Origin: Kiritimatiellia bacterium
GTDB lineage: Bacteria > Verrucomicrobiota > Kiritimatiellia > RFP12 > UBA1067
DNA: 64,000 nt
Assembly: GCA_041673345.1 (NCBI GenBank)
Contig: JBAYXX010000003.1
Span: 23,604-87,603 of the forward strand
Direction of reading: 5' to 3'
Shown piece by piece: positions 1 to 57,728 of the stretch. The translations under genes were made by a program, and so were the position numbers. Every line of letters begins with the position of its first letter. The stretch's first letter is position 1. Under the pieces are notes generated by a model. The model was not told the origin of the DNA. It was given only the letters and a program-made list of their open reading frames with translations, and searched no databases.

Positions 1-749
1 ATGGATTCTTGTCTGTACCCAAAGGGAAAGGACCTTTTCCTGTCGTTGTAAATGTGCCAGGCGCGGGTCCGGGTACTGTTGCTCCATCCACTGGCCTAGC
101 AGCCCAAGGGTTCGTTCATTTTGTCATGAATGTTCATCCCTTTGAGCCTGCGGCAACCAAAACTGAACAAAAACGGCTTTATGACGAGCAGAATCTCAGA
201 TTGAAAGAGATTTACGGTGTGCATTATAGTCTGTCGGGGGCAAGGGAACGTGAGGAATACTTTTTTTATCCGATAATACTGGGGATCAACCGTGCAGTCA
301 ACTGGTTGGCGGCAAGGCCGGATGTTGACAAAACGCGTTTCTTATATACCGGTTCCAGCCAAGGCGGCGGGTTTGGCTTTTATCTTTGTGGCCTGAATCG
401 CAACTTCACCAAAGGTGTAATGCATGTTCCGGCATTGACTGATCTCTTGGGATTTCAGCAGCAGCGCGCTTCAGGCTGGCCCAAGCTAGTCGAGAGCGTA
501 CCCGAGGCTGACAAGGCGGCGGCGACCAAAATCGCCCCTTATTTTGATGGGGCTCATTTCGCAGCCAGGATAAAATGTCCTGTGAGGGTCTCAGTTGGCT
601 TCATTGACCGTACCTGTCCTCCGGCCGCTGTGTATTCAGGTTACAACTCTCTGGTTGTCAAAGACAGGGATATCTGTCATGCGACCAGAATGCCGCACGC
701 TGTGTATCCGGAAGTCAGTAAACCTCTGGACCAATGGCTGAAAAAGTAG
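1..749 (+). CDS. CE7/AXE1-family serine esterase (acetyl xylan esterase / cephalosporin-C deacetylase-like), 5'-partial at window edge
   Basis: Frame is open to base 1. GSSQGGG nucleophile elbow (GxSxG). KGKGPFPVVV... pre-nucleophile strand and C-terminal His region are typical of AXE1/CE7 esterases. About 85 N-terminal residues lie outside the window. Confidence 0.6.
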   Translation, partial: GFLSVPKGKGPFPVVVNVPGAGPGTVAPSTGLAAQGFVHFVMNVHPFEPAATKTEQKRLYDEQNLRLKEIYGVHYSLSGAREREEYFFYPIILGINRAVNWLAARPDVDKTRFLYTGSSQGGGFGFYLCGLNRNFTKGVMHVPALTDLLGFQQQRASGWPKLVESVPEADKAAATKIAPYFDGAHFAARIKCPVRVSVGFIDRTCPPAAVYSGYNSLVVKDRDICHATRMPHAVYPEVSKPLDQWLKK

Positions 750-859
750 GTCCGGTTTTCAACCGGGCATAGTCTCGATGCAAGTCAGGTGTCTCCTCGT
801 CATCTGCTTTGTGCTAATATTCAGTTGTTATATGTAGCTTTTTTTATTATAAAAATTTT

Positions 860-6481: not shown

Positions 6482-6630
6482 AGCAGCTTTTAGCCGCAAC
6501 AAGATAAAGCGTTTGTGATCTGAGAAAAACCTTACCTGGCCTGTCTCTATGTGTTCGCAAGAAGGGTCGCGAAGAGACGCACTTTCTCTCCCGGGTATTT
6601 TTAACCCGGCTAACCTTAAGGGGGATTGCT

Positions 6631-10834: not shown

Positions 10835-10888
10835 GACCTGTAGCTCCGATTTCCAATCGGACATGTCCGGTTGGAAACCGGACCTACG
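10835..10888. repeat. REP-like double-hairpin palindromic element (module A), copy 1
   Basis: GTAG..TCCGATTTCCAATCGGAC-ATG-TCCGGTTGGAAACCGGACCTAC. Near-identical copies at 20571-20619, 37748-37795, 43903-43950 and 46376-46423. Confidence 0.8.
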
Positions 10889-12509: not shown

Positions 12510-12811
12510 TTTGGTTGATGAGGTTATTATAAGATACTTCTTTCCGACAAGGGAGGCAAAAATGCCTCTTTTGATCGGAAATTTGCCACCTTAACACCTT
12601 AAGCATGAAACTGTTGCAAAATTGGAACAGGCTCTATGTAGTCCACGCTTTAGCGTGTCTTCGGCCATAGTTAGAATTGCAAATTTTTTGAGAGCAACAG
12701 TGACAATGTCCCGATAAAATGGTATGTTTAAGAACAAATCGTAGAACGGTTTGACCGAAGAAGTGATTGGTGTTCAAAGGGTGATTGTTTAATTCAAACA
12801 AAGGAGACATC

Positions 12812-13395
12812 ATGCAATACAGAGAGTTGGGCAATTCAAATATTGCAGAGACCATGGCTTGTTTGATATCACTGCGTGATGAGGGCAAGATTCGTGAAAT
12901 CGGCGTTTCTAACTGCACACCTGGGCAGATGGATGAGTATCTCGCCGCAGGTGTGATCGTGAGCAACCAGCCGCGTTATAGCATGCTTGACCGGAAGATC
13001 GAAAAGGAGTTGTTGCCCTACTGCCGCAAGCACGATCTGGCAGTGCTGGCCTACTCCCCGTTGGAACAAGGACTTCTGACCGGCAAGATCGGCATGGAGA
13101 CGAGCATTGATCCTGAGTCATTCCGCAACAAACTCTCTTGGTTTGCGCCAGAAAAACGCAGGCTTGTTATAAAACTACTCTCAGAGTGGGAAGTGCTGAC
13201 ATAACAGTACGACTGTACGCTTGCGCAACTGGTGATTGCTTGGACAATCGCGCAGCCCAGTGTAACGGTCGCACTTTGCGGTGCTAGAAAGAGTGAGAAC
13301 GCGCTCGAAAACGCCGGTGCTGGTGCTTTGAAGATCACACCCGACGACCTTGCACGCATGCGGCGTGAAATTGAGGCGATTGCGCCGCCTGAATA
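12812..13395 (+). pseudogene. Aldo/keto reductase pseudogene (about 100-codon in-frame internal deletion plus in-frame TAA stop)
   Basis: AKR N-terminus MQYRELGNSNI.. is joined directly to ..LRDEGKIREIGVSN.. (middle of fold). In-frame stop at 13202-13204. AKR C-terminus continues in the same frame (..QYDCTLAQLVIAWTIAQPSVTVALCGARKSENALEN..). Confidence 0.65.
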
Positions 13396-13497: not shown

Positions 13498-14454
13498 ATG
13501 TTCAAACAAGGTTTTTTGCTTATTGGATTTGGAATGATCGCGGCGGTTATGAGAGCTGACATCACAGTCAACGAGACAGCTGGAGTTGTGCGTGTGGAGA
13601 TCAATGGCACCCAGTTTGCGGATTATAACTACAGGGATGTTGCGCGACCGTATTTGTATCCGGTCTTCGGCCCAACAGGGATACCGATGACGCGTGACTG
13701 GCCGATGGCGGAGAATCCCAATGACTCCAAAGACCACGTCCACCACAAAGGTCTATGGTATGCGCACGGGGACATTAATGGCGTGAATTTCTGGTCTGAA
13801 CAGAAGGGCTTCGGCAAGACTCGGCATAAGAAGTTTATCACGCTCAAGTCGGGCAAGTACGAAGGCGTGATCAGCTCGCTCAACGACTGGGTGGCCCCTA
13901 GCGGCACCGTGATCTGTACTGACGAGCGCCTGCTTCGTTTCCGCTCCGACGGTAGTGCTGTGCGTAGCATCGACTATGAGATTACACTGATCGCGTCACA
14001 CGGCGATTTGGTCATTGGCGACACAAAAGAGGGCAGCATGTCGATCCGCGTGCCATCGACGATGACCGTGAACGGCAAGAATGGAAAAGGGCATATCGTC
14101 ACTAGCGAAGGCTTGCGAGACGGAAAGACTTGGGGTAAGGCGGCAGCATGGGTTGATTACTGGGGGCCGGTGCAGAACCAAACGGTTGGCATAGCGGTTT
14201 TCGACCATCCCTCTAATCCGCGCCATCCGACACGTTGGCACGTTCGCACATACGGTCTTTTCGCCGCAAACCCCTTCGGATTACATCACTTTGATAATCA
14301 GGCGGGCAGCCCCGGCGACCTGAAAATTTCCGCTGGCGGCCATGTCACCTTCCGCTATCGCTTCGTATTTCACACCGGCGATGACCAGCAGGCCGGAATC
14401 GCCACTTTATATAAGGCGTATTGCGACAGCGGATCGGGTGTGCCTGCAAAATAA
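13498..14454 (+). CDS. PmoA-like family protein (DUF6807), secreted
   Basis: Signal peptide. DHVHHKGLWYAHGD.. and overall pattern typical of the PmoA-like/DUF6807 family common in PVC-group bacteria. Confidence 0.55.
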   Translation: MFKQGFLLIGFGMIAAVMRADITVNETAGVVRVEINGTQFADYNYRDVARPYLYPVFGPTGIPMTRDWPMAENPNDSKDHVHHKGLWYAHGDINGVNFWSEQKGFGKTRHKKFITLKSGKYEGVISSLNDWVAPSGTVICTDERLLRFRSDGSAVRSIDYEITLIASHGDLVIGDTKEGSMSIRVPSTMTVNGKNGKGHIVTSEGLRDGKTWGKAAAWVDYWGPVQNQTVGIAVFDHPSNPRHPTRWHVRTYGLFAANPFGLHHFDNQAGSPGDLKISAGGHVTFRYRFVFHTGDDQQAGIATLYKAYCDSGSGVPAK

Positions 14455-14744: not shown

Positions 14745-16199
14745 GTGATTATGAATAGGTACTGTTTATTTGTTGTGGTTGCGCTTGGGGCGCAATCGGC
14801 GTTGACTCAAAATCTCCCCAAAATTCAAAGTTTTGAAAGCACAGCCACCGACAACTGGAGCTTTAGCACCAACCCCCCCGCCTACAATGCCAACAACGAT
14901 GTGTGGGATCGTGTCAGCGATGGCGGCCAGTATTTTTCAGCTGCGCCGGATGGCTCTTACTTCTGGAAATTTTACGATATCGACGAGATACCAGGCATAC
15001 CCGAGGACAAAGTCTGCCATCTGACCTTCGAGACCGTTGATCTAGCGTCTGAGGAGGAATGCACCGTCAGCTTTGATTACTGTAACCGTGGACTGGATAA
15101 GGAAGACTACATGTCATATACCCTTGCTTTTGACAACAGCAATGGCTGGACAAGCGCCAGTGAGGTGGTGTTGCCAAAGCACGACGACAGTGTTTCCACT
15201 TGGTTCACCGTTCACACTTCCGTACCTGCGGAGGCGCAATATTGCCGTCTGCGGCTCTCAGCCAAGGCGAATTTTTCCGCGGACTGCGGTGGTTTTGACA
15301 ATATCCAATTGAAGGAGGGTGTCGTCAAGCAGCCCCAAATGACAATCGTAAGCCCGGTGAATGGTGCCTTTTTCGAAAACTCGGCCTCCAACGTAACCAT
15401 TGTTGGAACATCAACCAATCTGGTTGGGGTTATGGTGTGGAGTAACACCATGAACAGCGTCTCCGGCGCCATCGCGGCGAGCAGTGAATGGAGCATCGCA
15501 TCCCTGCCGCTAGGGGAGGGCCAGAATAAGATCTCCCTAACCGCGACCAATGCGACTGGTCTGAAAGCGGTTGTAGAGCTCTCACTCCTGCGCGGCCGCG
15601 TATTGGCTATGGATGCGCTGGGAAGAATAGTCTTTGTCGCCTTTAACAGCGCTGGCGACTCTTTTGCGTTTGTTGCACTTAAAGAACTTCCCGCAGGAGT
15701 GGTACTTCTTTTCACAGATAACACATGGAACGGAGCAGATTTTGGTTCAACCGAAGACAATCTTGTGTGGAGCAACAGTGTTGCGACAGCTGCGGGTACG
15801 GTGGTTATCTGTTACAACTGCCACGACTCCAAAATAATCAGTAACAACCTGGGCGTGGTGGTGAGTGGAAAGCTAAATCTTGCGCAGGATGGCGAGGAGA
15901 TCTATGCTTACTGCGGCAGTGTACGTCAACCAACCGCCTTTCTGGCGTCGATCAGCACTGCGAACTCAAACTTAAAAGGCACTGGACTGGTTTATGGTGA
16001 GACAGCGGTTGCGATTTCCAAGACTCCTGCAAGTCAATATTATCACGGTGCGCGTTGCACACAGAAGCAATGGTGCGACTACCTGCCGCTGATCAACAGT
16101 GCGGCCAACTGGTCGAAGACCGCCGACGCGACTGAGAGCTGGGGTGATGCGACAAGGTTTACGAGGGTGATTACGGCAACGGTGATTATGATTCAGTAG
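14745..16199 (+). CDS. Hypothetical secreted protein
   Basis: Signal peptide (MNRYCLFVVVALGAQSA). No recognisable domain. Confidence 0.5.
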   Translation: MIMNRYCLFVVVALGAQSALTQNLPKIQSFESTATDNWSFSTNPPAYNANNDVWDRVSDGGQYFSAAPDGSYFWKFYDIDEIPGIPEDKVCHLTFETVDLASEEECTVSFDYCNRGLDKEDYMSYTLAFDNSNGWTSASEVVLPKHDDSVSTWFTVHTSVPAEAQYCRLRLSAKANFSADCGGFDNIQLKEGVVKQPQMTIVSPVNGAFFENSASNVTIVGTSTNLVGVMVWSNTMNSVSGAIAASSEWSIASLPLGEGQNKISLTATNATGLKAVVELSLLRGRVLAMDALGRIVFVAFNSAGDSFAFVALKELPAGVVLLFTDNTWNGADFGSTEDNLVWSNSVATAAGTVVICYNCHDSKIISNNLGVVVSGKLNLAQDGEEIYAYCGSVRQPTAFLASISTANSNLKGTGLVYGETAVAISKTPASQYYHGARCTQKQWCDYLPLINSAANWSKTADATESWGDATRFTRVITATVIMIQ

Positions 16200-16497
16200 C
16201 GTCCCGTAAGGGGCTAGATCCGCGCACTGGGCGCGGAGAGGAGAGTGGTGAGTTTTTTGACTCGAACTTTGTCTCGCACTTAGTCTGGCTTGACAAGGTG
16301 TGAGACAAGGTGCGAGACAAGGAAGTCTTTCGCTATATGGGTGACTGCGGTGGTATGCGAATGATCAGGTTGCGCACTCTGGTCAGCCGCGCCTTTGGTT
16401 TACGATAACGGCGACGATGATGGTTGACGATTTTAAAGGACGGAATTTTTAATCGTAATCCGCTATCGCATGCCACGTCGAACGACTGGAAGGCGGG

Positions 16498-17016
16498 TCA
16501 TTCATCATCGTTAACCAAAGCCGCTCTGTGAGCGGCGCAGGTACTGGCTGCAGCGAGGGAGCCTGAGGCGAAAGCCCATGCGAGATTGTAACCTCCGCAG
16601 GGGCCGTCAACATCGACCACCTCACCGGCACAATATAGGTTTGAGATTGAGCGGCAGGCCAGTGTGCGCGGGTCCAGCTCCTGAACCGCCAGGCCTCCGC
16701 GGGTCAGCGTCGCCTTATCCCAGCCATCAGGCTGCACAATGGTCGGAACCCCCCTTCTAGCAAAGAAAGCGCGAATTTGTGATGGGGAAAAGTGATAAAT
16801 CGCTGGGGCGGCAAAGCTGGAGTTGCGCCCGAAGCTGTGAATCATCTCCCGTGGCGAGCACTCGTGAGTAAGATTACAGCTGCCATCGCCAGTTGCAAGC
16901 AGTTTGCGACCCGGCGATGCCAGCCGTTCCAGCATCAGAGCTGGTCTTGAACAAAAACAGGCCGCCGATAAATCGGCGGCCCCTGCTCCAATAATTAAAG
17001 TGTGCGGCGAACTCAT
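16498..17016 (-). pseudogene. HI0933/BaiN-like FAD flavoprotein with central ~230-aa in-frame deletion
   Basis: N-terminal FAD motif (LIIGAGAADLSAA..GRKLLATGDGSCNLTH) is fused to C-terminal signature (TLTRGGLAVQELDPRTL..LYCAGEVVDVDGPCGGYNLAWAFASG). 172 aa versus about 400 expected. Confidence 0.5.
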
Positions 17017-17486
17017 TAAAGTTGCTGTTCTTCAGCCAGCAGACTCTGCATACGGTTGACTGTGGCAACTAACTCATTGTTTTGTTTGAGCATCGTTTGA
17101 CATAGTGTGACCAGCTCCGCACAGCGGTGAAGGGTTGTGATACGCGATTTCTCCAGCTCTTTGCGGCGCAGTTTCAGACTGTCAATGCTCTCATCCAGAG
17201 TTGTGATGCGCTGCTCCGCCTTGAGTAACATGCGCCGTGTCTGAAAAAGCTGCGTGAGAACCTCGCCTGCGGAGAGATCCAGATCATCAATAATCATCTC
17301 TGACGGAATAGGCACTGTGACAGCCTGCTTACATTCAACGCAATTGATCGTCAAACCAGCGGCACGATAGTCGATGACCAGACTATGATTGCAGTGAGGG
17401 CAATCAAATACTATGTCTGTTTCATGGATCTCTTCTTCACTTGTGTTACCAGAAGCAACAATTGTATTTGTTGAAGTATCTTGCAT
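17016..17486 (-). CDS. Hypothetical zinc-ribbon plus coiled-coil protein
   Basis: CPHCNH..x13..CVECKQ zinc-ribbon. C-terminal heptad-rich region. Start/stop coupled to downstream flavoprotein remnant. Confidence 0.45.
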   Translation of the reverse strand: MQDTSTNTIVASGNTSEEEIHETDIVFDCPHCNHSLVIDYRAAGLTINCVECKQAVTVPIPSEMIIDDLDLSAGEVLTQLFQTRRMLLKAEQRITTLDESIDSLKLRRKELEKSRITTLHRCAELVTLCQTMLKQNNELVATVNRMQSLLAEEQQL

Positions 17487-17788: not shown

Positions 17789-18116
17789 AAATAACTCTCC
17801 TACTCGAAAAGGTAAAAATAATATCAGTTTTAGCCTCTCCGTTCAAGGCTAAACGCACTATTTATTTTACGCTTTCGAAACTAAATAATAATATAGTGAA
17901 TATTCACAAATTTCGCAAGCAAGAAATGACGTTTTGCGAAGTGCGGGCCGTGACCGCGGTTGGAGCGTTTTATTGGATTACTTTGAGAAAGTTTATTCGC
18001 CTGATTGAAACTGCGAAGAATAACCGCTATAGTAAATAGCTGTGAACTAAAAAAAGGTCAAAAAAAAATTCAGCATCAAACATAAATATCGCTGAGCATC
18101 GTACAGCCGATAATGC

Positions 18117-19079: not shown

Positions 19080-19897
19080 ACATGTCAAAAAAAAACAAAA
19101 AACCTATTTTAGAATTGAACGGCCTTTCAGTTGTTTACAAAAGGGTTGGCCGCCCAGCAATGCGCGCTGTTCACAAAGTTTCCCTCTCTCTGCTGGCGGG
19201 GGGTTCGCTTGGGATTGTTGGCGAAAGCGGCTGTGGCAAGACCTCGCTGGCCCGTGTTATTATGGGGCTGCACCTCCCGCATGAAGGGGCACTGCTCTTT
19301 GAGGGCAAGAGCATTGCGGCGTTTACTCATGCGGAGCGTGTTCGGTACAGGCGCAAGGTACAGATGATCTTTCAGGATGCAACGGGATCCCTCAATCCGC
19401 GCATGACTGTCCGGCAGAGCATTGAGGAGGTGCTCAGGGTGCACCGGATCTGCGTTCCCAAGGAGATCGAAAGCCGCGTGGACTCCCTGTTGGAGCGGGT
19501 GGCATTGTCAAAAAAGATATTGGATTCATATCCCCGTGAAATGAGCGGCGGGCAGTGTCAGCGCGTGAGTATCGCACGCTGCCTGGCCTTGGGTCCAGAG
19601 GTGATTATCGCGGATGAGCCTGTGAGCGCGCTGGATGTTTCGGTACAGGCGCGTATACTCAATCTTCTGCGTAGGTTGCAGCAGGAACTGAACTTGGCCC
19701 TGATTCTCATATCGCATGATCTCGCGGTGGTCAAACATGTCTGCGATGACGCAGTTGTTATGTACGCCGGCGAGTTTGTCGAGGCTGGCCGCACGCTTGA
19801 GGTGCTTGAAAACCCTCAGCATGCCTACACAAAGTCTCTGCTGGCAGCGGTCCCGGATGTCAAGCGGGAGCTGCAAAAACAGGTGCTGAGTATTTGA
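19076..19897 (+). CDS. Oligopeptide/dipeptide ABC transporter ATP-binding protein (OppF/DppF-like)
   Basis: GESGCGKTS, MSGGQCQRV, IIADEPVSALD. 4-bp overlap with upstream ATPase gene. Confidence 0.85.
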   Translation: MNMSKKNKKPILELNGLSVVYKRVGRPAMRAVHKVSLSLLAGGSLGIVGESGCGKTSLARVIMGLHLPHEGALLFEGKSIAAFTHAERVRYRRKVQMIFQDATGSLNPRMTVRQSIEEVLRVHRICVPKEIESRVDSLLERVALSKKILDSYPREMSGGQCQRVSIARCLALGPEVIIADEPVSALDVSVQARILNLLRRLQQELNLALILISHDLAVVKHVCDDAVVMYAGEFVEAGRTLEVLENPQHAYTKSLLAAVPDVKRELQKQVLSI

Positions 19898-19924
19898 AAA
19901 CAGCCAGCGTGTCGTTTCTTCTGA

Positions 19925-19967
19925 TTAGTCGCTTAGGCGACTAGAAAAAACAATTAATTGTTTTTTG
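19925..19967. terminator. Module E of the repeat family: perfect hairpin TAGTCGC-TTAG-GCGACTA followed by A6-CAATTAATTG-T6; probable bidirectional rho-independent terminator
   Basis: Hairpin followed by T-run on both strands. Sits immediately 3' of the oppF-like gene. Copies at 38005-38070 (inverted) and 46109-46155, also at gene 3' ends. Confidence 0.45.
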
Positions 19968-20001
19968 CAAAAAGTTGTCTATCGAACGTTTATAGGCGTT
20001 T

Positions 20002-20197
20002 AGTGTAGTAGTCGCTCTATGAGCGACACAGAGGTCAGTGTAGTAGTCGCTCTATGAGCGACACAGAGGTCAGTGTAGTAGTCGCTCTATGAGCGACACA
20101 GAGGTCAGTGTAGTAGTCGCTCTATGAGCGACACAGAGGTTGGTGTAGTAGTCGCTCTATGAGCGACACATGCCGCTCATAGAGCGGCTACTACACT
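20002..20197. repeat. Tandem array: 5 x 35-bp unit (AGTGTAGTAGTCGCTCTATGAGCGACACAGAGGTC), each with a perfect 7-bp-stem hairpin, ending in an inverted copy
   Basis: Period 35 bp at 20002, 20037, 20072, 20107, 20142. No unique spacers, so not CRISPR. Same 25-bp module (module D) at 30016-30200, 37939-37994 and 46191-46236. Confidence 0.9.
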
Positions 20198-20700
20198 CGA
20201 TGCTGGCCGACGATGACGGTGGACGATTGGGATCATGCGGGGGCTCGTCCACCAGCATCGTCGCCGTTATCTAAACCGGAGGCGCGGCTGACCAGAGTGC
20301 GTAATCTGATCATTCGCAAACCACCTTAGTCACCCGTATAGCGAAAGATTTCCTTATCTCACACCTTGTCTCACACCTTGTCTCACACCTTGTCAAGTCA
20401 GACTAAGTGCGAGACAAAATTCGCGACAAAGCTGGCCTATTGCCCAGGGTCGGGGTCGGGGTCGGGGTCGGTATCGGTATCGAAGGGTGCATAGAATCGA
20501 CCCCGATGCCGATTCCGACCCCGACTCCGAGTTGCGGGGCACCACATATTGACTGCGGAACCGACCTCTTGTAGGTCCGGTTTTCAACCGGACATGTCCG
20601 ATTGGAAATCGGACCTACGTCTGTCGTAAAGCACTATAGCCGCGGGCCGTGGCCGCGGTTGGCGCGTATACACGCTCCGAATAATGAATGCGGTCATGAC
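20198..20700. repeat. Composite repeat cluster (modules B/C, G, (GGGGTC)n/(GGTATC)n palindrome, A, H)
   Basis: 20350-20420 is an inverted copy of 16258-16325. 20440-20535 is a long imperfect palindrome of hexamer repeats. 20571-20619 is a module A double hairpin. 20628-20670 is a CCGCGG-rich palindrome also at 17905-17945 and 43960-44000. Confidence 0.8.
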
Positions 20701-20739
20701 AGACGCACTCTCCGACAAAGTTTACGACAAAGAGAAATA

Positions 20740-21255
20740 ACACATGATTTTACGATTTGCCATGCAGAGGTGGAGGAGATCTACAATGCCGCCGACCCAG
20801 TTGACACAGTTGTGCGCAATGCGCATGCGAAGTACGAGGCTTGTCGCCAGCTCCATCCCGGGGCGGCCATTATCACAGCCGATACTCTGGTCTGGTTTGA
20901 GGGGCGGCTGATTGGCAAACCCAGGGATCTCCTGGAGGCAGCGGAGTTTCTGCGCGCGTTTTCAGGAAACACACAGATTGTTTTCAGCGGAGTGGTATTG
21001 GGGATGCCCGGAGAGCGATCACCTGTAATCAGGGTTGAAGCTTCATCAGTTGAGTTTAAGGAGCTGACCGAAGAGGTGATTCAGGGCTATCTGCGGCGAA
21101 CCATGCCACTGGACCGCGCCGGTGCTTATGACATCGATGAAAACAGCGAACTACTGATCGCAGGGCATTGTGGCTCATACACCAATATCATGGGGCTGCC
21201 GGAGGAGATTCTCCGCGACTGGCTGAGAGCGCAACGGCTGATTGCCTTTTCTTAG
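20740..21255 (+). pseudogene. maf: Maf-like nucleoside triphosphate pyrophosphatase, 5'-truncated (N-terminal ~40 aa incl. substrate-binding S-P-R-R motif missing; repeat element occupies the 5' end)
   Basis: ITADTLVWFEGRLIGKP, FSGVVLG, LDRAGAYDIDENSELLIAGHCGSYTNIMGLP match Maf. The open frame upstream of about 20740 is translated repeat sequence with no Met. Confidence 0.5.
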
Positions 21256-24222: not shown

Positions 24223-24326
24223 ACATTCCGCCCTTTAAAAAATCGTCGATCAGCATCGTCGCCGCTATCGTAAACCGCCCTCTAAAACCTAAACTCCAAA
24301 ATCTAAACTCCGCGCCCAGCGCGGAT

Positions 24327-24797
24327 CTAGCCCCTTACCAAAGGGCTTAAGGGATCGCTCCACGCCGTTGCGTTCAAGTCGTGGCAACGGGATTGCGGCT
24401 CTTTGCTCTGCGTCGCCTCAAGCTTTTGCTTGCGAAAGCGGCCATGTCCCTTGTCCTCACCCGTTTTTTTAATCGGCATGACAAGGAAAAAGAGGGCGAT
24501 CAAGATCCCAATCAGAGCTAACACGAACATCAGCCAAGAGCTGTCGCGCGCAACGGCACTTCGAATAAATGCAAAATTGAGTACAAGATGGATGACTACC
24601 AAGGCCAACAAAAGATAGGCCGCCCAGAGATGAGCAGTGCCCCACTCGTGTCGCGAAAAGTTCAGAAGTGTCAGGCCATGGCCCCCTTTGCTGCCGGGAA
24701 CCAGTCGATGTTTGATCAGTAGCCCTGTGCCTGCAAGAAAGCACATCGTCACATACATTAAGATATCCGTCAGCACTCGAATGGTTTTTTTGTTCAT
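24327..24797 (-). CDS. DUF4405-like integral membrane protein
   Basis: Four TM helices. HRLVPG..GHGLTLL..RHEWGTAHLW pattern. Confidence 0.5.
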   Translation of the reverse strand: MNKKTIRVLTDILMYVTMCFLAGTGLLIKHRLVPGSKGGHGLTLLNFSRHEWGTAHLWAAYLLLALVVIHLVLNFAFIRSAVARDSSWLMFVLALIGILIALFFLVMPIKKTGEDKGHGRFRKQKLEATQSKEPQSRCHDLNATAWSDPLSPLVRG

Positions 24798-29961: not shown

Positions 29962-30790
29962 CCGTGGCTGTGACCGCGCGGCAAAGCGAGCCGCTTGCAA
30001 GAGCTGCTGTTCGGTGTCGCTCATAGAGCGACTACTACACACGCACTGCGCTTTGAAATGCAGGCTGGCTTGCAAGTCTTGCCGTTCGTGTAGTAGCCGC
30101 TCTACGAGCGGCATTGCGCTGCACTTTGAAATGCACGCCGGCTTGAAAGTCTTGATGATCGGTGTAGTAGACGCTCTATGAGCGGCATTGGTTGACGATA
30201 GCGGCGACGAGAGCGGATTAGGATTTCATCCCTCCTAATCATAATCTTAATCGTAATCCTAATCAAAATCGGTAGTTTTGGTCATGTGCAACTAGTGATG
30301 TTTAAATAGAAACCGTCAAGTTATAGGCAAGCCCGCCGCGCACCGCGGGTGCGAAAAAACGATGGGGTAACTCGACGGTCAAACGCATCGGAGTCGGGGT
30401 CGGGGTCGGAATCGGGGTCGACCTCGTACGCTTTTCGATACCGATACCGATACCGACCCCGACCCCGAGTTACAGGCACGAAACTGTGACAAAACCGTCA
30501 AGTTATAGGCAAGGGTAAACCCTGGGATCGCCGACGTCCTCGTCGGCCCTGCGGTTTTAACGCCTGCTCCTAATAAACTTGTGAAACCACAAGGAATTTA
30601 GCGCAGTCTAGCCGCCTGTCTTGCTACGCACAGGCAGGCAACCATTTTTTTTGACAGGATAACAGGATTGACAGGATTTACTTGATAAATTATCACTCAC
30701 AGAGTCGGAGAACACTGAGAGCAAAACATAGCCCTCTGCGAACTCTGCGACTCAGTGAGAGATAAGGAACGCGCCAGCCGAGTGATTGGC
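29962..30790. repeat. Composite repeat cluster: three module-D hairpins spaced about 72 bp apart (two full ~72-bp units), module C, (TAATC)n, 24-bp direct repeats flanking a (GGGGTC)n/(GGTATC)n palindrome, CCTGTCTTGC..GCAGGCAGG palindrome
   Basis: Module-D hairpins at 30016, 30101 and 30174. AAACCGTCAAGTTATAGGCAAG at 30311 and 30490 flanks palindrome 30388-30475. The translated ORF-track entries in this region are repeat artefacts. Confidence 0.8.
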
Positions 30791-31748: not shown

Positions 31749-31983
31749 GTGCCGAGCAGGCTGTAAGGAACGCGCCTGGCGAGTGATTGGCAGGTCGAAG
31801 CTGTAGGGTGCGGGCCGTGAAAAAACGATGGGTAACTCAACCAAGTAGTCGAAAAAGATAAGGATTAGGATTAGGATTAGGATTAAGATAAAGATGTGTC
31901 TCCATCCTAATCGCAATCTTAATCAAACATCGGTGATTTTTAGTTATACGTGATAAGTGCAGCAGAACTTGTAACTCTTGCCG

Positions 31984-37096: not shown

Positions 37097-37702
37097 ATGG
37101 GTGCGATGATTTCGTTTGTTGTTAAGACTTGGCTCAAAATATTATTTATCTTTACGCCGTTTCTTGTGCTCTCGATTTTTCTGGGGATTACGCGCGATTA
37201 CGATAGGAGTCGTCGTCGGGCGTTCGCTCTGCGTACTATCAGTGCCATAACAGTCATCTGCCTGGTGGTTTATTTTTTTGGCTCAATGATATTTTCGTTA
37301 TTCGGGATCACATTGGATGCCTTTCGGATCGGGGCGGGAGCACTGCTGTTTTTATCAGCGATTAATTTGGTGCAGGGCAATGTGCCTGTGACACCCAGCG
37401 GGGAGGAAGATCTGGCGGTGGTGCCTCTTGCCATGCCGATCACCGTAGGACCAGCGGTGATGGGCGTACTTTTTGTTATAGGCGCGGATGTCATCAGCTT
37501 TGAGCAGCGCATGGCCGGGGCTGTGGCGGTGGGTCTGGCAGTTGCCTCTATGAGCGGTCTGCTTTTGGTGGCGACGACGATTGAGAGGTTGGTGGGAAAA
37601 TCTCAGCTTACGATTCTTAGCAAAATCACCGGCTTGATTTTGGCGGCGTTGTCAGCGCAGATGATTGTCACTGGCATTAAAAATTTTTTGGTGGCGGAGT
37701 GA
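37097..37702 (+). CDS. MarC-family (UPF0056) integral membrane protein
   Basis: Six TM helices. MarC family pattern. GGAGGG SD 7 nt upstream of ATG 37097. Confidence 0.75.
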   Translation: MGAMISFVVKTWLKILFIFTPFLVLSIFLGITRDYDRSRRRAFALRTISAITVICLVVYFFGSMIFSLFGITLDAFRIGAGALLFLSAINLVQGNVPVTPSGEEDLAVVPLAMPITVGPAVMGVLFVIGADVISFEQRMAGAVAVGLAVASMSGLLLVATTIERLVGKSQLTILSKITGLILAALSAQMIVTGIKNFLVAE

Positions 37703-37704
37703 AG

Positions 37705-38300
37705 AAGCTCTAAAGTGAAAAGGTCGCGTCTCTGGCGCGGAAGCAACGTAGGTCCGGTTTTCAACCGGACATATCCGATTGGAAACCGGACCTACTGGAG
37801 TTTGGCTTCGCCTTCGGTTTACGATAACGGCGGCGATGCTGGTGAACGAGCCCCCGCATGACCCCAATCGTCCACCAACATCGCTTGCCACGCCGAACGA
37901 CTGGAAGGCGGGTCGTACAGCATCGTCAACCAGCATCGGGTGTAGTAGCCGCTCTATGAGCGGCATGTGTCGCTCATAGAGCGACTACTACACCAAACTC
38001 CTATAAACGTTCGATAGACAATTTTTTGCAAAGAACAACTAATTGTTTTTCTAGTCGCCTAAGCGACTAGGCTTGATCTGAGACTCTGCTCAAATCAAGT
38101 GGCTCCGCGTTGCGGAGCAACAGAAGTCAGAATTCAGGAGTCAGAGTTCACGCGGCTGCATCGCGAAAAAACGGTGGGTAACTGCGACAAAATGGCAGGA
38201 AAAAATGAAGATTGTGATTAAGATTGGGATTAGGATTGACCCACCGACAACATGTTTGTAAGGACCAACATGTTTGTCCTGCCCTTTGGTAAGGGCCTAG
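37705..38300. repeat. Composite repeat cluster (modules A, C, B, inverted module-D pair, module E, H-like, (GATTA)n)
   Basis: 37748-37795 is a module A double hairpin. 37939-37994 is a 56-bp module-D palindrome. 38005-38070 is the reverse complement of 19921-19990. ORF-track entry 37652..37966 is repeat translation. Confidence 0.8.
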
Positions 38301-43789: not shown

Positions 43790-44060
43790 CGGGTAGCAAC
43801 TCAAGGTTAGGGTTGAAGGTTAGGGTTGAAGGTTAAAGGATTAAAATGGTCGATCAGCGTCGTCGTCCGTTATCGTAAACCGACGGCGAAGCCGAACTCC
43901 AGTAGGTCCGGTTTCCAACCGGACATGTCCGATTGGAAATCGGACCTACGTTTTTGCGAAGCACTGTAGCCACGGGCCGTGACCGCGGTTAGCGCGTTTA
44001 TAGTCGCTTAGGCGCCTACTGCACTTTAGAACTCTAGAGCTTCCCCTTTCAACCATTTCA
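43790..44060. repeat. Composite repeat cluster ((GGTTAGGGTTGAA)x2, module C, module A, module H, partial module E)
   Basis: 43903-43950 is a module A double hairpin. 43800-43845 is a TTAGGG-containing 13-mer duplicated. Confidence 0.8.
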
Positions 44061-46107: not shown

Positions 46108-46470
46108 TATCCTAGTCGCTTAGGCGACTAGAAAAAGCAATTAATTGTTCTTTCCAACAAGTTGTCTGTTTGTGAAGTCGTTTAACTCTAATGTAGTAGT
46201 CGCTCTGTGAGCGACATATGCCGCTCATAGAGCGGCTTCGGCCGACGATGCTGTGCGACCCGCCTTCCAGTCGTTCGGCGTGGCGAGTGATGTTGGTGGA
46301 CGATTGGGATCATGCGGAGGCTCGTCAACCAGCATCGTCGCCGCTATCGTAAACCGACGGCGCGGTCGACTTTCAGTAGGTCCCGATGCATCGGGACATG
46401 TCCGGTTGGAAACCGGACCTACGTTGCTCCCGCGTCAGAGACGCGACCTTTTCACTTTAGAACTTCTTCT
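46108..46470. repeat. Composite repeat cluster (module E, module-D inverted pair, modules B/C, module A)
   Basis: Module E at 46109-46155. Module D at 46191-46236. Module A at 46376-46423. ORF-track entry 46253..46543 is repeat translation. Confidence 0.8.
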
Positions 46471-52784: not shown

Positions 52785-52874
52785 TACCCCTTAACAAAAT
52801 CCTTCAAAAAATTGAAGAAAGGAAAAGCCACGTGGAACAGCTGAATCATAGCCGTAACCAATTTTTATCTGAAA

Positions 52875-52990
52875 CCACAAAGGACCTAGCGCAGCATAGC
52901 CGCCTGTCTTGCAACACACAGGCAGGCAACTAATTTTTTATCTCTCACAGAGGCACAGAGTTCTCAGAGTTGTTTTGCCCGCGAATCTCC
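52875..52990. repeat. Partial copy of the element inserted in copA (includes the 23-bp TIR TTATCTCTCACAGAGGCACAGAG)
   Basis: CCTAGCGCAGCATAGCCGC...TTATCTCTCACAGAGGCACAGAGTTCTCAGAGTTGTTT matches 57141-57235. Confidence 0.75.
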
Positions 52991-53390
52991 GCTAAATGAC
53001 AAGGGGATTTCATCCCCACTTCGTGGGGTCGCTAATCACTTGAAATACCCTTTCAATAACCCGTTTGGAACAGGCTAAAGCATTGTTTAAACAATAAATT
53101 TCGTTTCCCCAAACGCGCAGCGTTTGTTACTAAAGCAGCGGGCTCCTAACCACTAATTTCTCAGTGAGGGCGACGACCTTCCGCACATCACACAAACTCT
53201 TTTGGTTGCGGCGACTAGCTGCTTTAGGTTGTTTTGTGGTTTCCAAACTTTTATCGGATAAGTTATTTGAAACAAGTTTATTTTTGACAAAACCCGCAAT
53301 TAGTGCAATTATTCCGTCATCATTAATCAAGTATCCGCGTAAACTACGGCCAGTCGTACAATAATTTATTGAGCAACAAAGGAGATAAAG

Positions 53391-55059: not shown

Positions 55060-57728
55060 TTAGAACTGCCAGCGCAGACCGCCGCCACAACCAAAATCGG
55101 AGTGCCATTGGCCGATCAGGGAAAAGTGTTTGGTAAGCAAATAGCCGGTGCCCGCGCGGATCTCCCAATGTTCTTTCGTATCATATTCGGCCTCAGAAAA
55201 CACCGCGAGTCGCGGCGTGAGTTCAAGGTGCTTACCGACGGCGAATTGGAACTCACCGGCTGTGTCCACCCACACGCGTGATGTGATATTGAGCGGCAGT
55301 AGATAGCGCAGGCCGAAGATACCCTCGTGCTTGTCGAAGTGATCGTCCGCTCCCTCAAGGTCAAGCCCTGCGAAGAGAGTGGTAAAACGGTTCAGGTAAT
55401 AATCGTAGGTGGGCGCGACCTCCCACTCTACGTCATCCACGTGCTGCCAGCCAGCCTGCCATTCGGTAGAGAAGATGTGCCGCGAGTTGGCGTAAACCAA
55501 CACTCCCTGCGACATCTGCGAAAGCGCATCCACCCGACCATACAGGTAGAACGGGTCATCGTAGAGTAGTGGACGCACGGCGGCGGTGGCTGGGTCGGGG
55601 ACGAACCCCTGATAATGCACCACCGCCGCCATGCCGCTCATCATGTGATAGAGCAGGTGGCAGTGGAAAAACCAGTCGCCGAACTCATCCGCCGCAAACT
55701 CAATCACAGTAGTCGTCATGGGGGCGACATCCACGGTGTGTTTGAGCGGTGAATGATCTCCCTGGGCGTTGAGCACCCGGAAGAAATGGCCGTGAAGATG
55801 CATCGGGTGATGCATCATGGTGCGGTTGATCATGATGAACCGCACCACCTCGCCGCGTTTGATTTCAATGTCGTCACGCTCGGACAACGGCTTGTTGTTC
55901 AGAAACCAGAGGTAACGCTCCATGTCGCCATCGAGGGTGAGCCGGATTTTTCGGATCGGTTTTGAAGAATCGAATGCGGTGGATTGCAGGGCGCGTAGCT
56001 TGTCGTAAGGCGGCCCTGGACGTTCCTCGCTCATGTTGTCAGCGGCCAGCGGGGTTTGAGAACTCACATCCTCAGCGAGTAGTCCGAGCCAGGTGCTATT
56101 GGGTGCAGTGGTTTTCCCTTCGGAAACCATACCCGTACCCATCGGCGCCTTTTCGTGCATCATACCGCTCATGTCGTGGCCCGCGTGTTCCATCGCGGGT
56201 GCGGCGTCCATCCCTGAATAGTTCGTTTTAGCGGCATTCGGAGCCATCTCGCCGTGATCCATTCCCTTCATTCCTTCCATCTCCTGCATGCCGTCCATAC
56301 TCTCCATTCCCTCCATACTGTTCATGCCCGGTTGATCGAACTTGCCGGCACGTACAGCGTTGCCCGACATACCCATCGAACCGCCTGGGGTCAGTGCGAA
56401 CACGCGTTTGAGCGAGAGGCCGCCCATGCTGTCGTAAAGATTGGGGGACGGAATGTCCGGCGCGGCGTGCCGTGTTCCGTCACCAATCCACAGCGACGCA
56501 TGCCCTGATCCATCATGAGCTGTTGCGCGAAACTCGTAGCTGCCTTCATCCGGCATTGTAACGATCACGTCATAGGTCTCAGCCACGCCCATCAGCAACC
56601 GCTCTTCGTTGAAGGGATGCACCAGTTGTCCGTCCGCCGAGATCACCTGCATCGGGCCGCCGGCAAACTGCAAATAGAAGAACGTGGAGGCCGAACCATC
56701 GATGACCCGGAGCCGGATCTTTTCGCCCGGCTTAGCGGTGAGGGCGTGGTGCGGTGCGCCGTTGAGCAGAAAGCGATCATAGTACACATCGGACAGATCC
56801 ATGGGTGGCATGCGTTGAAGCTCCCTTGAGAAATACGCGCCCAACAGTCCCAGCCGCGCTGCACCCAGCACGCTTTGACCGCTGCCTTTCTTAATTGAAT
56901 ACCACTCGCTGCCACGTTTGAGGGTGTGGAGCACCGAGTTCGGGTCGTCATCTGTCCAATCGGATAGCACCACGACGTGGTCACGCAGCTGGTCAAACAC
57001 GCCCTTATCCTTCGGCGCGATGACCAATGCTCCGAACAGTCCGCGCTGTTCCTGGAGCATGGTGTGGCTGTGATACCAGTAGGTACCGGATTGACGCAGA
57101 TCAAACTCATAGGTGAATGTCGTACCAGGTGCAATGGGTGGATATGTCCTAGCGCAGCATAGCCGCAACCAATTCTTTATCTCTCACAGAGGCACAGAGT
57201 TCTCTGAGTTGTTTCAGAGTTTCCACCAGCAAAGACTCAAAGGCGTAAAGTTCGGGCTCGACGTTCCCAGTTTTCCACATTTTTCACCTCTAAGATTTTT
57301 CACCTTAAAATATTCTCTCAGTGCTGCGAAAAGTTCAGCTACTCTCTGTGTTCTCTGTGCCTCTGTGAGAGATAATAAACGTACAAAAAAAACAAGAATA
57401 TGAATGATAGTAGTACAAAGGGCACGCTGTCCATGTTGTTGGGCAGCAGAATTCCATGCCAGTGAATCGAGGTCTCCACGTCCACCTGGTTATGGACGCG
57501 GATTGTTGCATGGTCGCCGTCGGTGAAACGCAGGGTCGGCCCCGGTAGTTGACCATTGAGGGTCATGGCCTGGACAGGATGGCCGGTGATGTTTATCTCC
57601 TGCCGGGCAATGGTGAGGTCATATTCCACGGTTGCCGCCGATAAGATCGCCCACGGCACGAACAGCGCCAAGGTGCCCAACAGCACCGCCATGGGATTCA
57701 CAGACCATGTTTTGGTTGGTCGCATCAT
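55060..57728 (-). pseudogene. copA: Multicopper oxidase (CopA/PcoA-like) fused to a CopB/PcoB-like outer-membrane domain, disrupted by a ~290-bp repeat/MITE insertion
   Basis: All four MCO copper motifs (HWHG at 57440s, WYHSH, HPMHLHGH, HCHLLYHMMSGM). Met/His-rich MxxM repeats. About 180-aa C-terminal extension ending ..RWQF. Coding sequence is interrupted between HWHGILLPNNMD (about 57429) and YPPIAPG (about 57135). Insert length is not a multiple of 3. Confidence 0.6.
57177..57375. mobile_element. ~199-bp MITE with perfect 23-bp terminal inverted repeats (TTATCTCTCACAGAGGCACAGAG) inserted in copA
   Basis: Left TIR 57177-57199. Right TIR 57353-57375 (reverse complement). No transposase ORF. 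Left-end copy at about 52935-52975. Confidence 0.7.

Follow-up and report, generated by a model that had tools for sequence, protein, structure and literature searches.

A polar, hairpin-rich composite repeat with GTAG-tagged palindromes in the intergenic DNA of a Kiritimatiellia bacterium

Repeats in the Intergenic DNA of the Window

The window analyzed here is a stretch of 64,000 nt from a Kiritimatiellia bacterium, 83% of which is coding. Repeats occupy several of its spacers, including those between the SerA and PrmA genes and between the convergent MarC and radical-SAM genes, and one copy splits a multicopper-oxidase gene (Table 1). In a self-blastn comparison, 146 internal repeat matches covered 3,199 nt, whereas five dinucleotide-preserving shuffles of the window gave 0 self-matches. 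When segments found two or more times in related genomes are added, the cover rises to 4,870 nt; 3,815 of these lie outside predicted genes and make up 36% of the 10.5 kb of intergenic DNA. About one third of the non-coding DNA in the window is a lineage-specific, hairpin-rich and apparently mobile repeat family. An earlier reading of the letters alone (the sequence-only reading) had put the repeats at roughly 4 kb, which is right because 3,815 repeat nt are found outside predicted genes. More generally, it had described a modular family that builds intergenic DNA and is accounted for by no annotated feature, and this description holds: repeat searches of the window found its modules again at or near where it had located them. 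Its two examples of reverse-complementary copies were both recovered as inverted matches (19946-20030 with 37966-38050, 85 nt, 94%; 16256-16322 with 20364-20430, 67 nt, 93%), along with two longer inverted pairs (37788-37927 with 46244-46383, 140 nt, 88%; 16292-16402 with 20272-20382, 111 nt, 90%). Tandem arrays reported by TRF are the D array of the longest copy (35 nt x 4.8), its 12-mer G array, and hexamer arrays. The half-site of module A has 10 matches in the window against 0 expected, and 83% of module bases are outside genes, though only 17% of the DNA is non-coding.

In addition to modules A-H of the earlier list, modules X, Y, T, R, J, K, M, N, P, and Q were distinguished. The ORF at 37652-37966 on the minus strand lies on repeat modules and is a translated repeat, as had been proposed. 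At 17880-17960, one of the stretches listed earlier, module H (17943-17970) recurs and nothing else is repeated. The 264-nt repeat at 51900/63735 stems from the duplication of a gene fragment and does not belong to the mosaic family.

Table 1. Repeat loci of the window, in order of position.
Feature	Position	Strand	Modules and context
Single module-A arm	746..771	+	GTAG + hairpin
Solo module-A REP doublet	10840..10887	-	48-nt head-to-head heterodimer
Truncated long-variant composite, reversed	16206..16536	-	R, G array, Y, C, X-like, B, Dc arm; adjoins stop codon of gene 14745-16199 and 3' end of split HI0933-like gene
Solo module-H REP	17943..17970	+	
Long composite copy	19926..20666	+	E1 hairpin 19926-19944; E2 AT-rich palindrome 19945-19984; D array 20002-20170, five 35-nt Ds units, closed by Dc arm 20170-20196; head-to-head D heterodimer 20143-20196; X hairpin 20218-20253; C 20254-20279; Y 20280-20350; G 12-mer array 20352-20394, inverted partial units up to ~20430; hexamer-array hairpin 20447-20530; module A REP doublet 20571-20618; module H REP 20637-20666 (repeat searches, TRF, folding)
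Deletion variant	24243..24338	+	C, 14-nt tandem array (24280-24311), R terminal hairpin
D arms, inverted C, and hexamer arm in SerA-PrmA spacer	30014..30270	.	D arms 30014-30040, 30088-30114, 30162-30188 (73-nt unit x2); inverted C 30190-30210; (TAATCN)n hexamer arm 30233-30270
K motif + hexamer-array hairpin	30313..30513	+	(TCGGNN)n/(NNCCGA)n hairpin 30388-30468, flanked by 22-nt direct repeat AAACCGTCAAGTTATAGGCAAG at 30313-30334 and 30492-30513
M module + small N-type palindromic unit	30582..30768	+	M 30582-30651; N-type unit ~30689-30768
J, K motif, hexamer-array hairpin	31780..31925	+	J, H-like GTAG hairpin; (GATTRN)n/(NYAATC)n hairpin 31854-31925
Canonical short composite, reversed	37701..38070	-	Plus-strand reading T A C X B Dc Ds E2 E1; between convergent MarC and radical-SAM genes; carries spurious ORF 37652-37966
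K motif, hexamer array, module Q	38160..38300	+	(GATTNN)n array 38208-38238; Q 38230-38300
Partial composite, then E1-like hairpin	43841..44018	+	C-linker-A-H; divergent (promoter-side) spacer
Canonical short composite	46112..46469	+	E1 E2 Ds Dc- B- X C A (one arm degenerate) T; begins 5 nt past GDPD gene stop codon
M+N modules and P element	52870..53230	+	M+N 52870-52975; ~126-nt P element 53105-53230
M'/N+...N- element	57148..57413	+	266 nt, in multicopper-oxidase gene

GTAG-Tagged Palindromes

Three of the modules, A, D, and H, are hairpins with a GTAG head. Module A is represented by 105 arms of the form GTAG plus a 6-bp stem (GTCCGG/CCGGAC); the head is GTAG in most of them, with GCAG, GTGG, and GTAA as variants. 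Its stem pair 10-18 is G-C in 51 arms, A-T in 50, and broken in 4. Overall, 90% of the stem cells are paired, the covariation score was matched by 0 of 500 shuffles, and a few stems contain G-T pairs. In independent metagenome loci, 55 of 58 pairs were retained. The arms of module A also form 48-nt doublets, 37 of 42 of which are heterotypic and none homotypic at this length; the independent metagenome loci again gave heterotypic doublets (18 of 19) and no homotypic ones. The same heterotypic G/A combination is found in both orientations, a constancy that is expected if the doublet is copied whole. Such a doublet folds at -16 kcal/mol (z = -5.5). In module D, the head is GTAGTAG in 29 of 34 copies and the first stem pair (8-22) is T-A in 18, C-G in 15, and broken in 1, while module H combines the GTAG head with a CCGCGG...CCGCGG stem. 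The same GTAG hairpin was found in REP clusters of Pseudomonadota and Planctomycetia MAGs.

GTAG-tagged REPs have been defined as short palindromes of 20-40 bp with an unpaired terminal GTAG in most copies and a 6-13 bp stem, which form subfamilies with alternative complementary stem residues and are present in many copies, chiefly extragenic and mostly between unidirectional or convergent genes (PMC3733652). Modules A, D, and H have the architecture of this class (PMC3733652). At least 48 module-bearing loci were counted in the genome scan, at least 38 of them from one MAG. In addition, the module A doublets appear to fit the REPIN, an inverted pair of REPs that forms a hairpin and is the predicted replicative unit (PMC3116915).

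Order, Ends, and Variants of the Composite

The sequence-only reading saw a recombining mosaic whose modules recur in different orders and orientations. The orientation of the whole unit does vary. However, approximately 75 copies from dozens of loci in three related genomes (STCSWMC_123, GH19, and Ga0265294) keep one canonical order, E1-E2-D(1-10 tandem units)-B-X-C-(Y-G-hexamer hairpin)-A-T/H-R. Neighbouring modules likewise keep a set order and a set orientation to each other (C>A 20 vs 4, X>C 13, E1>E2 8), which argues against free recombination. The copies compared differ by whole-unit inversion, internal deletions, and tandem expansion, which create the mosaic look. Composites contain 0-10 Ds units, and the number of D units was 4.8 and 3.8 in two assemblies of one organism. 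These units are contiguous 35-mers with no spacers, and a CRISPR-like array was rejected. Within the hexamer-array hairpins, the arm sequences vary among copies inside a partly conserved frame.

The E end is sharp: in about 24 copies, the composite begins at (Y)TAGTCGC next to unique flanks. Module E2 is an AT-rich palindrome (ACAATTAATTGT). The far (R) end stops at ...GGATCTAGSCCCTTAC. The two termini, TAGTCGC... and ...CTAGSCCCTTAC, are unrelated, and the composite therefore has no terminal inverted repeats. Between them, the fixed-order mosaics join REP dimers (A, D, H) to the conserved motifs E2, B, X, C, T, and R; this is the layout of a BIME, in which REPs of alternating orientation are spaced by a few conserved non-REP motifs that recur in set combinations. 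By analogy, the fixed terminal modules and the middle module of variable tandem number would also place the composite with BOX-type elements. Outside the composite, module Q recurs 7-8 times in a sister genome, and the P element, which has a 10-bp terminal inverted stem, has at least 17 diverged copies in related genomes; as this stem is invariant, with no covariation, P was rejected as a structured RNA.

In related genomes, composites lie between tandem genes in 35 cases, convergent genes in 12, and divergent genes in 5, and the A (REP) end favours gene 3' ends (43 vs 21, p=0.008); these statistics are approximate because the loci were chosen by the presence of A or X and the gene calls are ORF-based. 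Module E had been placed at gene 3' ends, which is true of the three copies in the window (3/3) but not of the family as a whole, where 31 face a 3' end and 29 a 5' end (p=0.9).

Gain and Insertion

The SerA-PrmA spacer of the window (~825 nt) is longer than those of L011 (~690 nt) and L002 (97 nt), and the three differ in content; the relative with the 97-nt repeat-free spacer has 83% SerA identity to the window. Similarly, an M module is present in L052 and missing from L024.

One insertion could be reconstructed exactly. The stretch 57137-57428, which had been listed as an intergenic gap, is a multicopper-oxidase gene split by the 266-nt M/N element: the N-terminal part is encoded at 57414-57728 and the rest at 55060-57147 in another frame, and the element is inserted exactly between codons. 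Its N modules form an inverted pair. The empty site reads ATATGT^TACAAA, and no target-site duplication is present. The ends of the element are common to its other copies, and the GTAG end always adjoins TACAAAG. This clean, duplication-free insertion concerns the M/N element and not the main E...R composite, for which no filled/empty pair with exact junctions was found among the genomes compared. The candidate pair L085/L050 was rejected, as its six extra segments are coding sequence deleted in L085 and not repeats; their spacers differ by an 847-nt insertion of complex make-up, which carries an imperfect duplication of ~32 nt. Breaks in assemblies fall within the repeats, and one contig of the window's organism ends in a hexamer array.

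Search for a Transposase

Gene and domain searches of the 64,000 nt revealed no transposase encoded in the window. In the sister MAG L024, a search for an HUH...Y pattern by regular expression found a 315-aa protein that scores 25.1 bits against Y1_Tnp (cutoff 23) and matches the NCBIfam REP-associated tyrosine transposase with E=1.5e-15 and 57.3 bits, below the equivalog cutoff of 80. This RAYT-like family is common in Kiritimatiellia and bears the JGI label RayT. Upstream of the L024 gene, at 430-670 nt, are a D-like dimer and an A doublet; since REPs are found on one side only, it does not appear to be a classical REPtron, in which cognate REPs flank the RAYT gene. Its homolog in L084 has other GTAG hairpins at the 5' end.

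Several other candidates were rejected. An E. coli YafM query and a Y..NP regular expression gave only a degraded RAYT gene in L010, a Bacteroidetes MAG, where it is flanked by CCTCACAGG hairpins proper to that genome. The 133-aa ORF between A and E in L016 is spurious, and the stretch consists of further hairpin modules, while the homology common to L085, L019, and L045 near REPs is just ftsH. Viral contigs contained no module A matches, and a phage origin was likewise rejected.

Nature and Spread of the Repeats

We consider that the repeats are probably lineage-specific, non-autonomous, hairpin-rich intergenic elements of the REP/REPIN/BIME kind, embedded in a polar composite and likely mobilised by an HUH/Y1 enzyme. 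The observations that point to this reading are the architecture of the repeats, hairpin covariation, fixed module order, extragenic bias, sharp ends, lineage-specific gain, and one duplication-free insertion. The core units are the three GTAG-tagged palindrome families A, D, and H, of which A and D occur as head-to-head heterodimers that would be copied as units. In this clade they are embedded in a single polar composite of ~350-750 nt, with the order given above, able to enter spacers and sometimes genes in either orientation. The mosaic would then arise in four ways: the entire element is inverted as it inserts; internal stretches are deleted (E2>A, X>A, C>A, C>R); slipped-strand synthesis enlarges the tandem arrays, both those of D (1-10 units) and those of hexamers, 12-mers, and octamers; and further small elements, namely M/N, P, and the K-hexamer units, become nested. 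Mobilisation would take place in trans, on single-stranded DNA, by an HUH/Y1 transposase of the RAYT family such as the one whose gene is in the sister genome. As suggested by the REP literature, effects on the host may include mRNA 3'-end stabilisation and read-through attenuation, and the E2 palindrome may bind nucleoid proteins.

Alternatively, the composites could be structured ncRNA genes or cis-regulatory RNA (a terminator or stabiliser, or ribozyme-bearing RNA) kept for a function at the RNA level. Every module folds stably (z = -5 to -9 vs shuffles); the preference of the A end for gene 3' ends, the tolerance of G-T pairs in a few stems, and weak Pistol-ribozyme matches in module E also agree with this reading, and RNA roles have been proposed in the REP literature. 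However, no Rfam family reached its gathering score on any repeat. The module E matches to the Pistol ribozyme (RF02679) score 28.1 and 24.8 bits, under the 34.5-bit threshold, and P1 is a perfect hairpin with a 4-nt loop. The defining pseudoknot joins the P1 loop to a segment between P2 and P3, but of this 9-nt pseudoknot segment one copy keeps 2 nt and the other has it unaligned; this candidate was rejected. So was module E as an intrinsic terminator or promoter, as 19850-20760 contains no promoter or terminator consensus. In addition, elements lie in either orientation to neighbouring genes, with an unbiased E side, different deletion variants lack different internal parts, and a relative of the family disrupts a coding gene. 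The copies are too alike for covariation beyond the palindromes, which are strand-symmetric. An RNA-level function thus appears improbable as the reason for which the composites are kept.

A second alternative, also unlikely, is that the composites are MITEs, that is, Correia-like deletion derivatives of a DDE-transposase IS that move by cut-and-paste with terminal inverted repeats and target-site duplications. Their size (~100-750 nt), intergenic position, end-retaining deletion series, and sharp E-end boundary resemble those of MITEs; in addition, the N modules are an inverted pair within the 266-nt insert, and P has its terminal inverted stem. Against this, the two ends of the main composite are unrelated, the exactly reconstructed insertion (that of the M/N element) lacks a target duplication, no DDE transposase was seen in the window, and the cores that are conserved belong to the GTAG-tagged REPs, a class linked to Y1 enzymes. 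Finally, it is very improbable that the similarity was mainly made in place by local slippage, palindrome formation, and gene conversion between spacers, without transposition, as a mutational by-product or MAG assembly artefact: the variable D number (1-10, and 4.8 vs 3.8 in one organism), the many hexamer and octamer arrays, and the assembly breaks within repeats would agree with this, but identical multi-module units of 350+ nt recur, sharply bounded by unique sequence, at unlinked loci numbering in the dozens, the elements are present in independent NCBI, ENA, and JGI assemblies, one insertion falls exactly between codons, and a relative has a short repeat-free orthologous spacer.

Within the preferred reading, that of REP/REPIN/BIME-type elements in a polar composite, a bolder and rather doubtful proposal is that the whole E...R composite, and not its REP doublets alone, is mobilised as an undescribed non-autonomous class by the RAYT-like Y1 transposases of ~315 aa, with E2 and the hexamer-array hairpins as protein-binding or structure-specific recognition modules. 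If true, the composite would be a REPIN/BOX-type hybrid with its own insertion rules.

Significance

These results extend GTAG-REP/BIME-type repeats to Kiritimatiellia, a PVC lineage that has received little study and is represented largely by MAGs. Selfish or structural DNA of this kind is well known in bacteria, and the repeats are a new example of it and not a new category of system. The repeats break assemblies, yield spurious ORF calls, and disrupt at least one gene; they also differ between near-identical genomes and therefore matter for MAG quality, annotation, and strain typing. With three REP families and a variable tandem core, the composite is a tractable case for the question of the REP replicative unit, and it is also suited to asking whether the long RAYT-like proteins of this clade mobilise REP-type DNA.

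Comparison with Known Systems

Correia elements carry 26-bp terminal inverted repeats and duplicate a TA target. The sequence-only reading had called the repeats Correia/BIME-like, and the likeness to the Correia elements of Neisseria lies in abundant intergenic repeats of ~100-150 nt, effects on the transcription of neighbours that the present repeats may share, and mosaic subtypes. However, the ends of the composite are unrelated and the reconstructed M/N insertion has no duplication; since terminal inverted repeats and target duplication are both lacking, the Correia half of the label is rejected, whereas the BIME half is retained, with A, D, and H as GTAG-tagged REPs. As in IS200/IS605-derived PATEs and HUH/Y1 transposition, hairpin-bearing ends are found without terminal inverted repeats, and insertion occurs beside a short specific motif with no target duplication, although this second likeness concerns the single 266-nt M/N insertion. 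Unlike for PATEs, a parent element carrying tnpA/tnpB was not found.

The BOX elements of Streptococcus pneumoniae and S. suis (boxA-boxB(n)-boxC), for which MITE-like features have been reported, are also polar modular composites with fixed end modules and a middle module in 0 to ~10 tandem copies, varying between loci and strains (PMC3049150). They too are intergenic and strongly folded, measure tens to ~650 nt, give rise to spurious ORFs, and have no transposase of their own (PMC3049150). In contrast, the two have no sequence relationship and belong to different phyla, BOX modules are not GTAG REPs, and the Kiritimatiellia composite has many more module types as well as nested hexamer-array hairpins.

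Also among the closest known systems are the GTAG REPs, REPINs, and BIMEs of E. coli, Pseudomonas, and Stenotrophomonas (PMC3733652; PMC3116915; PMC2817692). REPs were already known in the PVC superphylum, as GTAG-17/19/20 in Opitutus terrae and in Rhodopirellula baltica (PMC3733652; PMC3116915; PMC2817692). Several differences set the present repeats apart. Module A loops measure 7 nt instead of the usual 2-4 nt; promoter-side copies are common, with repeats in 3 of the 6 divergent spacers that the window contains, unlike the REPs of E. coli; and the 315-aa RAYT-like protein falls under the equivalog cutoff and does not have REPs on both sides of its gene, unlike in RAYT systems. In addition, A, D, and H have fixed places in a long polar composite, which also contains the non-palindromic modules E2, B, X, C, and Y and whose tandem core varies, an organisation that is atypical because most published REPs are unassociated with other repeats (PMC3733652). 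The shared features are a stem of 6-7 bp behind an unpaired GTAG head, subfamilies whose stems are complementary, heterodimers joined head to head across 2 bp like those of O. terrae GTAG-17, several families per genome in high copy number, a strong extragenic bias with occasional intragenic copies, fewer copies in divergent spacers (for composites, 5 against 35 tandem and 12 convergent), clusters with conserved non-REP motifs as in BIMEs, and a RAYT-family gene, here a candidate in a sister genome.

Repeat content of the window

The modular repeats reported by the sequence-only reading are real. Its listed motifs were seen directly at 19900-20700, and both of the reverse-complement pairs that it named were recovered by a repeat search of the window, which found 48 direct families and 86 inverted pairs, including inverted matches between separate spacers of 140 nt (88%), 111 nt (90%) and 85 nt (94%). 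Self-blastn gave 146 non-trivial matches covering 3,199 nt of the window, and none in five dinucleotide-preserving shuffles of it. The total reaches 4,870 nt once segments that are single-copy in the window and recur in related genomes are counted; 3,815 nt of this lie outside predicted genes, which amounts to 36% of all intergenic DNA (10.5 kb). Tandem arrays (TRF) include a 35-nt unit (x4.8, 20002-20170), a 12-mer (x3.6, 20352-20394) and numerous hexamer arrays.

Unrelated to this family is a perfect 15-nt x3 tandem repeat (GTGCCAACCGGGGTC) at 54123-54190, in the spacer 53994-54207. A 264-nt direct repeat (86% identity) joins 63735-63998, the 5' end of a DUF255/thioredoxin-like gene on the minus strand, and 51900-52163, apparently a degraded second copy of this gene start; in translation the two agree over the first few residues only.

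Identity of modules A, D and H

Module A is a 48-nt doublet of inverted arms, each consisting of GTAG and a GTCCGG-loop-CCGGAC hairpin. Module D carries GTAGTAG (head kept in 29 of 34 copies) before a TCGCTC/GAGCGA stem, and module H carries GTAG before CCGCGG...CCGCGG. These are the defining features of the GTAG REPs, of which several families per genome, heterodimers and, in the PVC group, Opitutus terrae examples with 1-2-bp dimer spacing have been described (Di Nocera et al., PMC3733652); the core modules A, D and H are thus GTAG-tagged REPs. The stability of all key hairpins far exceeds that of shuffled sequence (z = -5 to -9). At the innermost position of the module-A stem, 51 of 105 arms have a G-C pair, 50 an A-T pair and 4 a broken one; 90% of stem cells are paired, with a covariation score matched by no shuffle. 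The first stem pair of module D is T-A in 18 copies, C-G in 15 and broken in 1. One G-type and one A-type arm are combined in 37 of 42 module-A doublets, with 0 homotypic at 48 nt, and independent metagenome loci gave 18 heterotypic and 0 homotypic doublets, as expected if the whole doublet is what is copied, in line with the proposal for REPINs (PMC3116915).

When one module-A arm was used to scan species-representative genomes, at least 48 loci were found. Among the matches listed, at least 38 belong to the Kiritimatiellae MAG STCSWMC_123, a sister species whose genes share 81-90% identity with those of the window, at least three to the MAG GH19, and isolated ones to MAGs of Pseudomonadota, Planctomycetia and Bacteroidetes, in which the unit lies amid GTAG-headed hairpins of the same stem and different loop, that is, classical REP clusters. 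That distant phyla have this REP type in common points to either convergence or horizontal transfer together with its enzyme. The exact arm GTAGGTCCGGTTTYCAACCGGACAT was also found beside same-stem, other-loop REPs in Pseudomonadota/Planctomycetia MAGs (L019, L020, L039, L045).

Single module-A arms (GTGACTGTCCGATTGGAAATCGGACCTAC repeated) also form head-to-tail tandem arrays (L092, ~14100-14354; L051, 4988-5100). Because the tetranucleotides GATT and TCGG are common to the hexamer arrays and the module-A arm, there is a hint that these arrays may originate by slippage of REP sequence.

A polar composite

When consensus sequences of 22 modules were mapped onto the window and every Kiritimatiellae locus, neighbors proved to have a fixed order and relative orientation (C>A 20 vs 4; X>C 13; E1>E2 8; E2>Ds 5; Ds>X 5, where Ds and Dc are arms of D). 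Searched for in metagenomes, the non-REP module X was found at 43 loci; some 30 of these lie in a single metagenome, Ga0265294, in which the string E1 E2 Ds(1-10) Dc- B- X C A recurs, followed by T, H or R. When the A doublet is oriented by its G-type arm, one side carries C and a 15-nt linker (in GH19, E2 directly), and the other carries T or H, then short CACTCGCG-type arrays up to R. The modules therefore form one polar composite, of which all window blocks are versions (see table). Thus, the modular repeats of the earlier mosaic do recur, but not in free order, since neighbor order and orientation are fixed and the same strings are present in Ga0265294. With all blocks being versions of one unit, the apparent mosaic results from whole-unit inversion, internal deletions, tandem expansion and the nesting of small elements, namely M/N, P and K-hexamer units, the last with inverted arrays of (TCGGNN)n or (GATTNN)n.

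Composite versions, solo REPs and the riboswitch in the window
Feature	Window position	Orientation or strand	Remarks
Composite, full	46112-46469	forward	
Composite, full	37701-38070	reverse	
Composite, long variant	19926-20666		five D units and Y-G-hexamer insert; 86%-identical version in Ga0265294
Composite, truncated	16206-16536	reverse	
Composite deletion variants	43841-44018 and 24243-24338		
Solo REPs	10840, 746, 17943		
Cobalamin riboswitch	8725-8844	-	61 bits, E=1e-12; upstream of TonB-dependent receptor gene 6631-8628(-)

The P element is a sharply bounded dispersed unit of ~126 nt (window 53105-53230) with at least 17 copies (L006, L014, L026, L035, L057, L062, L094, L097 and others) that are 75-92% identical and share an invariant 10-bp terminal stem, CTAAAGCAGC...GCTGCTTTAG. 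No covariation was found among these copies, two of which (L034, L050) contain an inserted M hairpin.

Position relative to genes

Module bases lie 83% outside predicted genes, in DNA that is 83% coding. With ORF-based gene calls, and at loci selected for carrying A or X, the A side of 73 oriented composites faced a gene 3' end in 43 cases and a 5' end in 21 (p=0.008), and the E side in 31 and 29 (p=0.9); the placement of module E at gene 3' ends, proposed earlier, therefore reflects three window copies only. Composites lie in tandem (35), convergent (12) and divergent (5) contexts. No sigma-70 or intrinsic-terminator consensus was found in 19850-20760.

It is unlikely that the repeats are a family of RNA genes. 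Module E gave the only suggestive Rfam match, to the Pistol ribozyme, but this match scores below threshold and has no pseudoknot; Rfam support is otherwise absent and composite orientation is unconstrained.

Element ends, insertion and turnover

The GTAG-REP composite begins sharply at its E end: about 24 copies become similar precisely from TAGTCGC onward, usually after a pyrimidine, and have unique DNA upstream. The other end terminates at ...GGATCTAGSCCCTTAC; because the two ends are unrelated, the composite has no terminal inverted repeats.

Insertion and turnover are most directly evidenced by a multicopper-oxidase gene (55060-57728, minus strand) that is split, with a shift of frame, by a 266-nt repeat element (57148-57413). 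In its ortholog P0122 (803 aa, 87% identity), residues 19-112 align to 57701-57420 and residues 115-803 to 57147-55063, in another frame. The native codons ...MDSVPFV and TYPPIA... are exactly 266 nt apart, with no target duplication in the reconstruction against P0122, and the NCBI annotation holds the 702-aa C-terminal part only. The first base of the insert (CCTAGCGC...) and its last bases (...GATAGYAG, with TACAAAG always next) are common to other copies. In HUH/Y1 single-strand transposition (IS200/IS605, RAYT), the element's ends carry hairpins and are not inverted repeats, the target is not duplicated, and insertion takes place next to a preferred short motif. Because the 266-nt element shares these properties, we infer that it probably inserted in this manner. 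DDE-type MITEs or Correia-like elements, the latter a label given in the sequence-only reading, are an improbable explanation: the composite has no terminal inverted repeats, and the reconstructed insertion no target duplication.

Between SerA and PrmA, the window has a spacer of ~825 nt and the sister species one of ~690 nt, and the two differ in the modules that they contain; a relative whose SerA is 83% identical has 97 nt there, with a simple terminator-like hairpin. A 94% ortholog of one sister-genome locus carries an M module that is absent from the latter. In a second (ENA) assembly of the same organism (L001), the D array has one 35-nt unit fewer (L001 1651-1784 vs window 20002-20170) and the contig ends within a hexamer array (window 30475), which shows that these repeats interrupt assemblies and either vary or are collapsed in them. 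Local slippage clearly shapes the tandem parts, but an artefact or a purely local process is very unlikely to account for repeats that are carried by independent assemblies and have unique flanks at dozens of loci.

L085 (2887-5445) and L050 (reverse, 1569-7303) come from genomes 95-97% identical. Two large ORFs of 977 and 857 aa, complete in L050, have lost segments in L085 through six internal deletions (240-890 nt); the cause is either decay of the genes or faulty metagenome assembly.

A candidate transposase

No transposase, integrase or REP-associated tyrosine transposase (RAYT) is encoded within the window. A screen of all ORFs for HUH...Y identified a 315-aa protein in a sister-species locus (L024), which passes Pfam Y1_Tnp (25.1 bits, cutoff 23) and matches the NCBIfam "REP-associated tyrosine transposase" at E=1.5e-15, with a score of 57, below the equivalog cutoff of 80. 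Members of its family, some of them labelled RayT by JGI, occur commonly in Kiritimatiellia and Pontiella. Upstream of the gene, at a distance of 430-670 nt, are an A doublet and a D-like dimer, with nothing comparable downstream, and a Ga0265294 homolog has other GTAG hairpins at its 5' end. These observations support, without proving, a putative REP-RAYT link.

In a Bacteroidetes MAG (L010, 2590-3510), a degraded RAYT-like ORF (...YIHLNPVKHG...) has its own AACCTCACAGGTTT hairpins on both sides and a module-A-like arm ~470 nt away.

Other features of the window

The genes flanking the repeats are ordinary chromosomal ones (ABC ATPases, Maf, SerA, PrmA, MarC, a radical-SAM enzyme, GDPD and others), and the SerA sequence matches a Kiritimatiellia MAG protein at 100% identity. 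A phage origin was rejected, as module A had no matches in viral contigs. The window has 0 tRNAs, and its sole Rfam match at gathering thresholds is the cobalamin riboswitch, whose association with a TonB-dependent receptor is an ordinary arrangement. An HI0933-like flavoprotein gene (16498-17486, minus strand), split at 17016 into two ORFs and adjoining the truncated composite, and an aldo/keto-reductase ORF (12785-13204, plus strand), which spans only profile positions 116-215 of 291, are both likely pseudogenes. A low-GC region (60001-61849; GC 0.39 at 60001-61000) may be foreign DNA; it comprises a 243-aa minus-strand ORF that matches no Pfam family (60317-61048) and, after it, an 800-nt spacer free of the repeat modules.

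Comparison with known systems

No account of such repeats in Kiritimatiellia was found in the literature searched. They are rated as being of the known REP kind, with some unusual composite features, and matter mainly for annotation and assembly of this clade; the composite is also a model for asking what the replicative unit of REP-type DNA is. The repeats work like REP/REPIN/BIME DNA and share the architecture of GTAG REPs; in being composites whose middle module is repeated in tandem a variable number of times, they parallel the pneumococcal BOX elements (PMC3049150).
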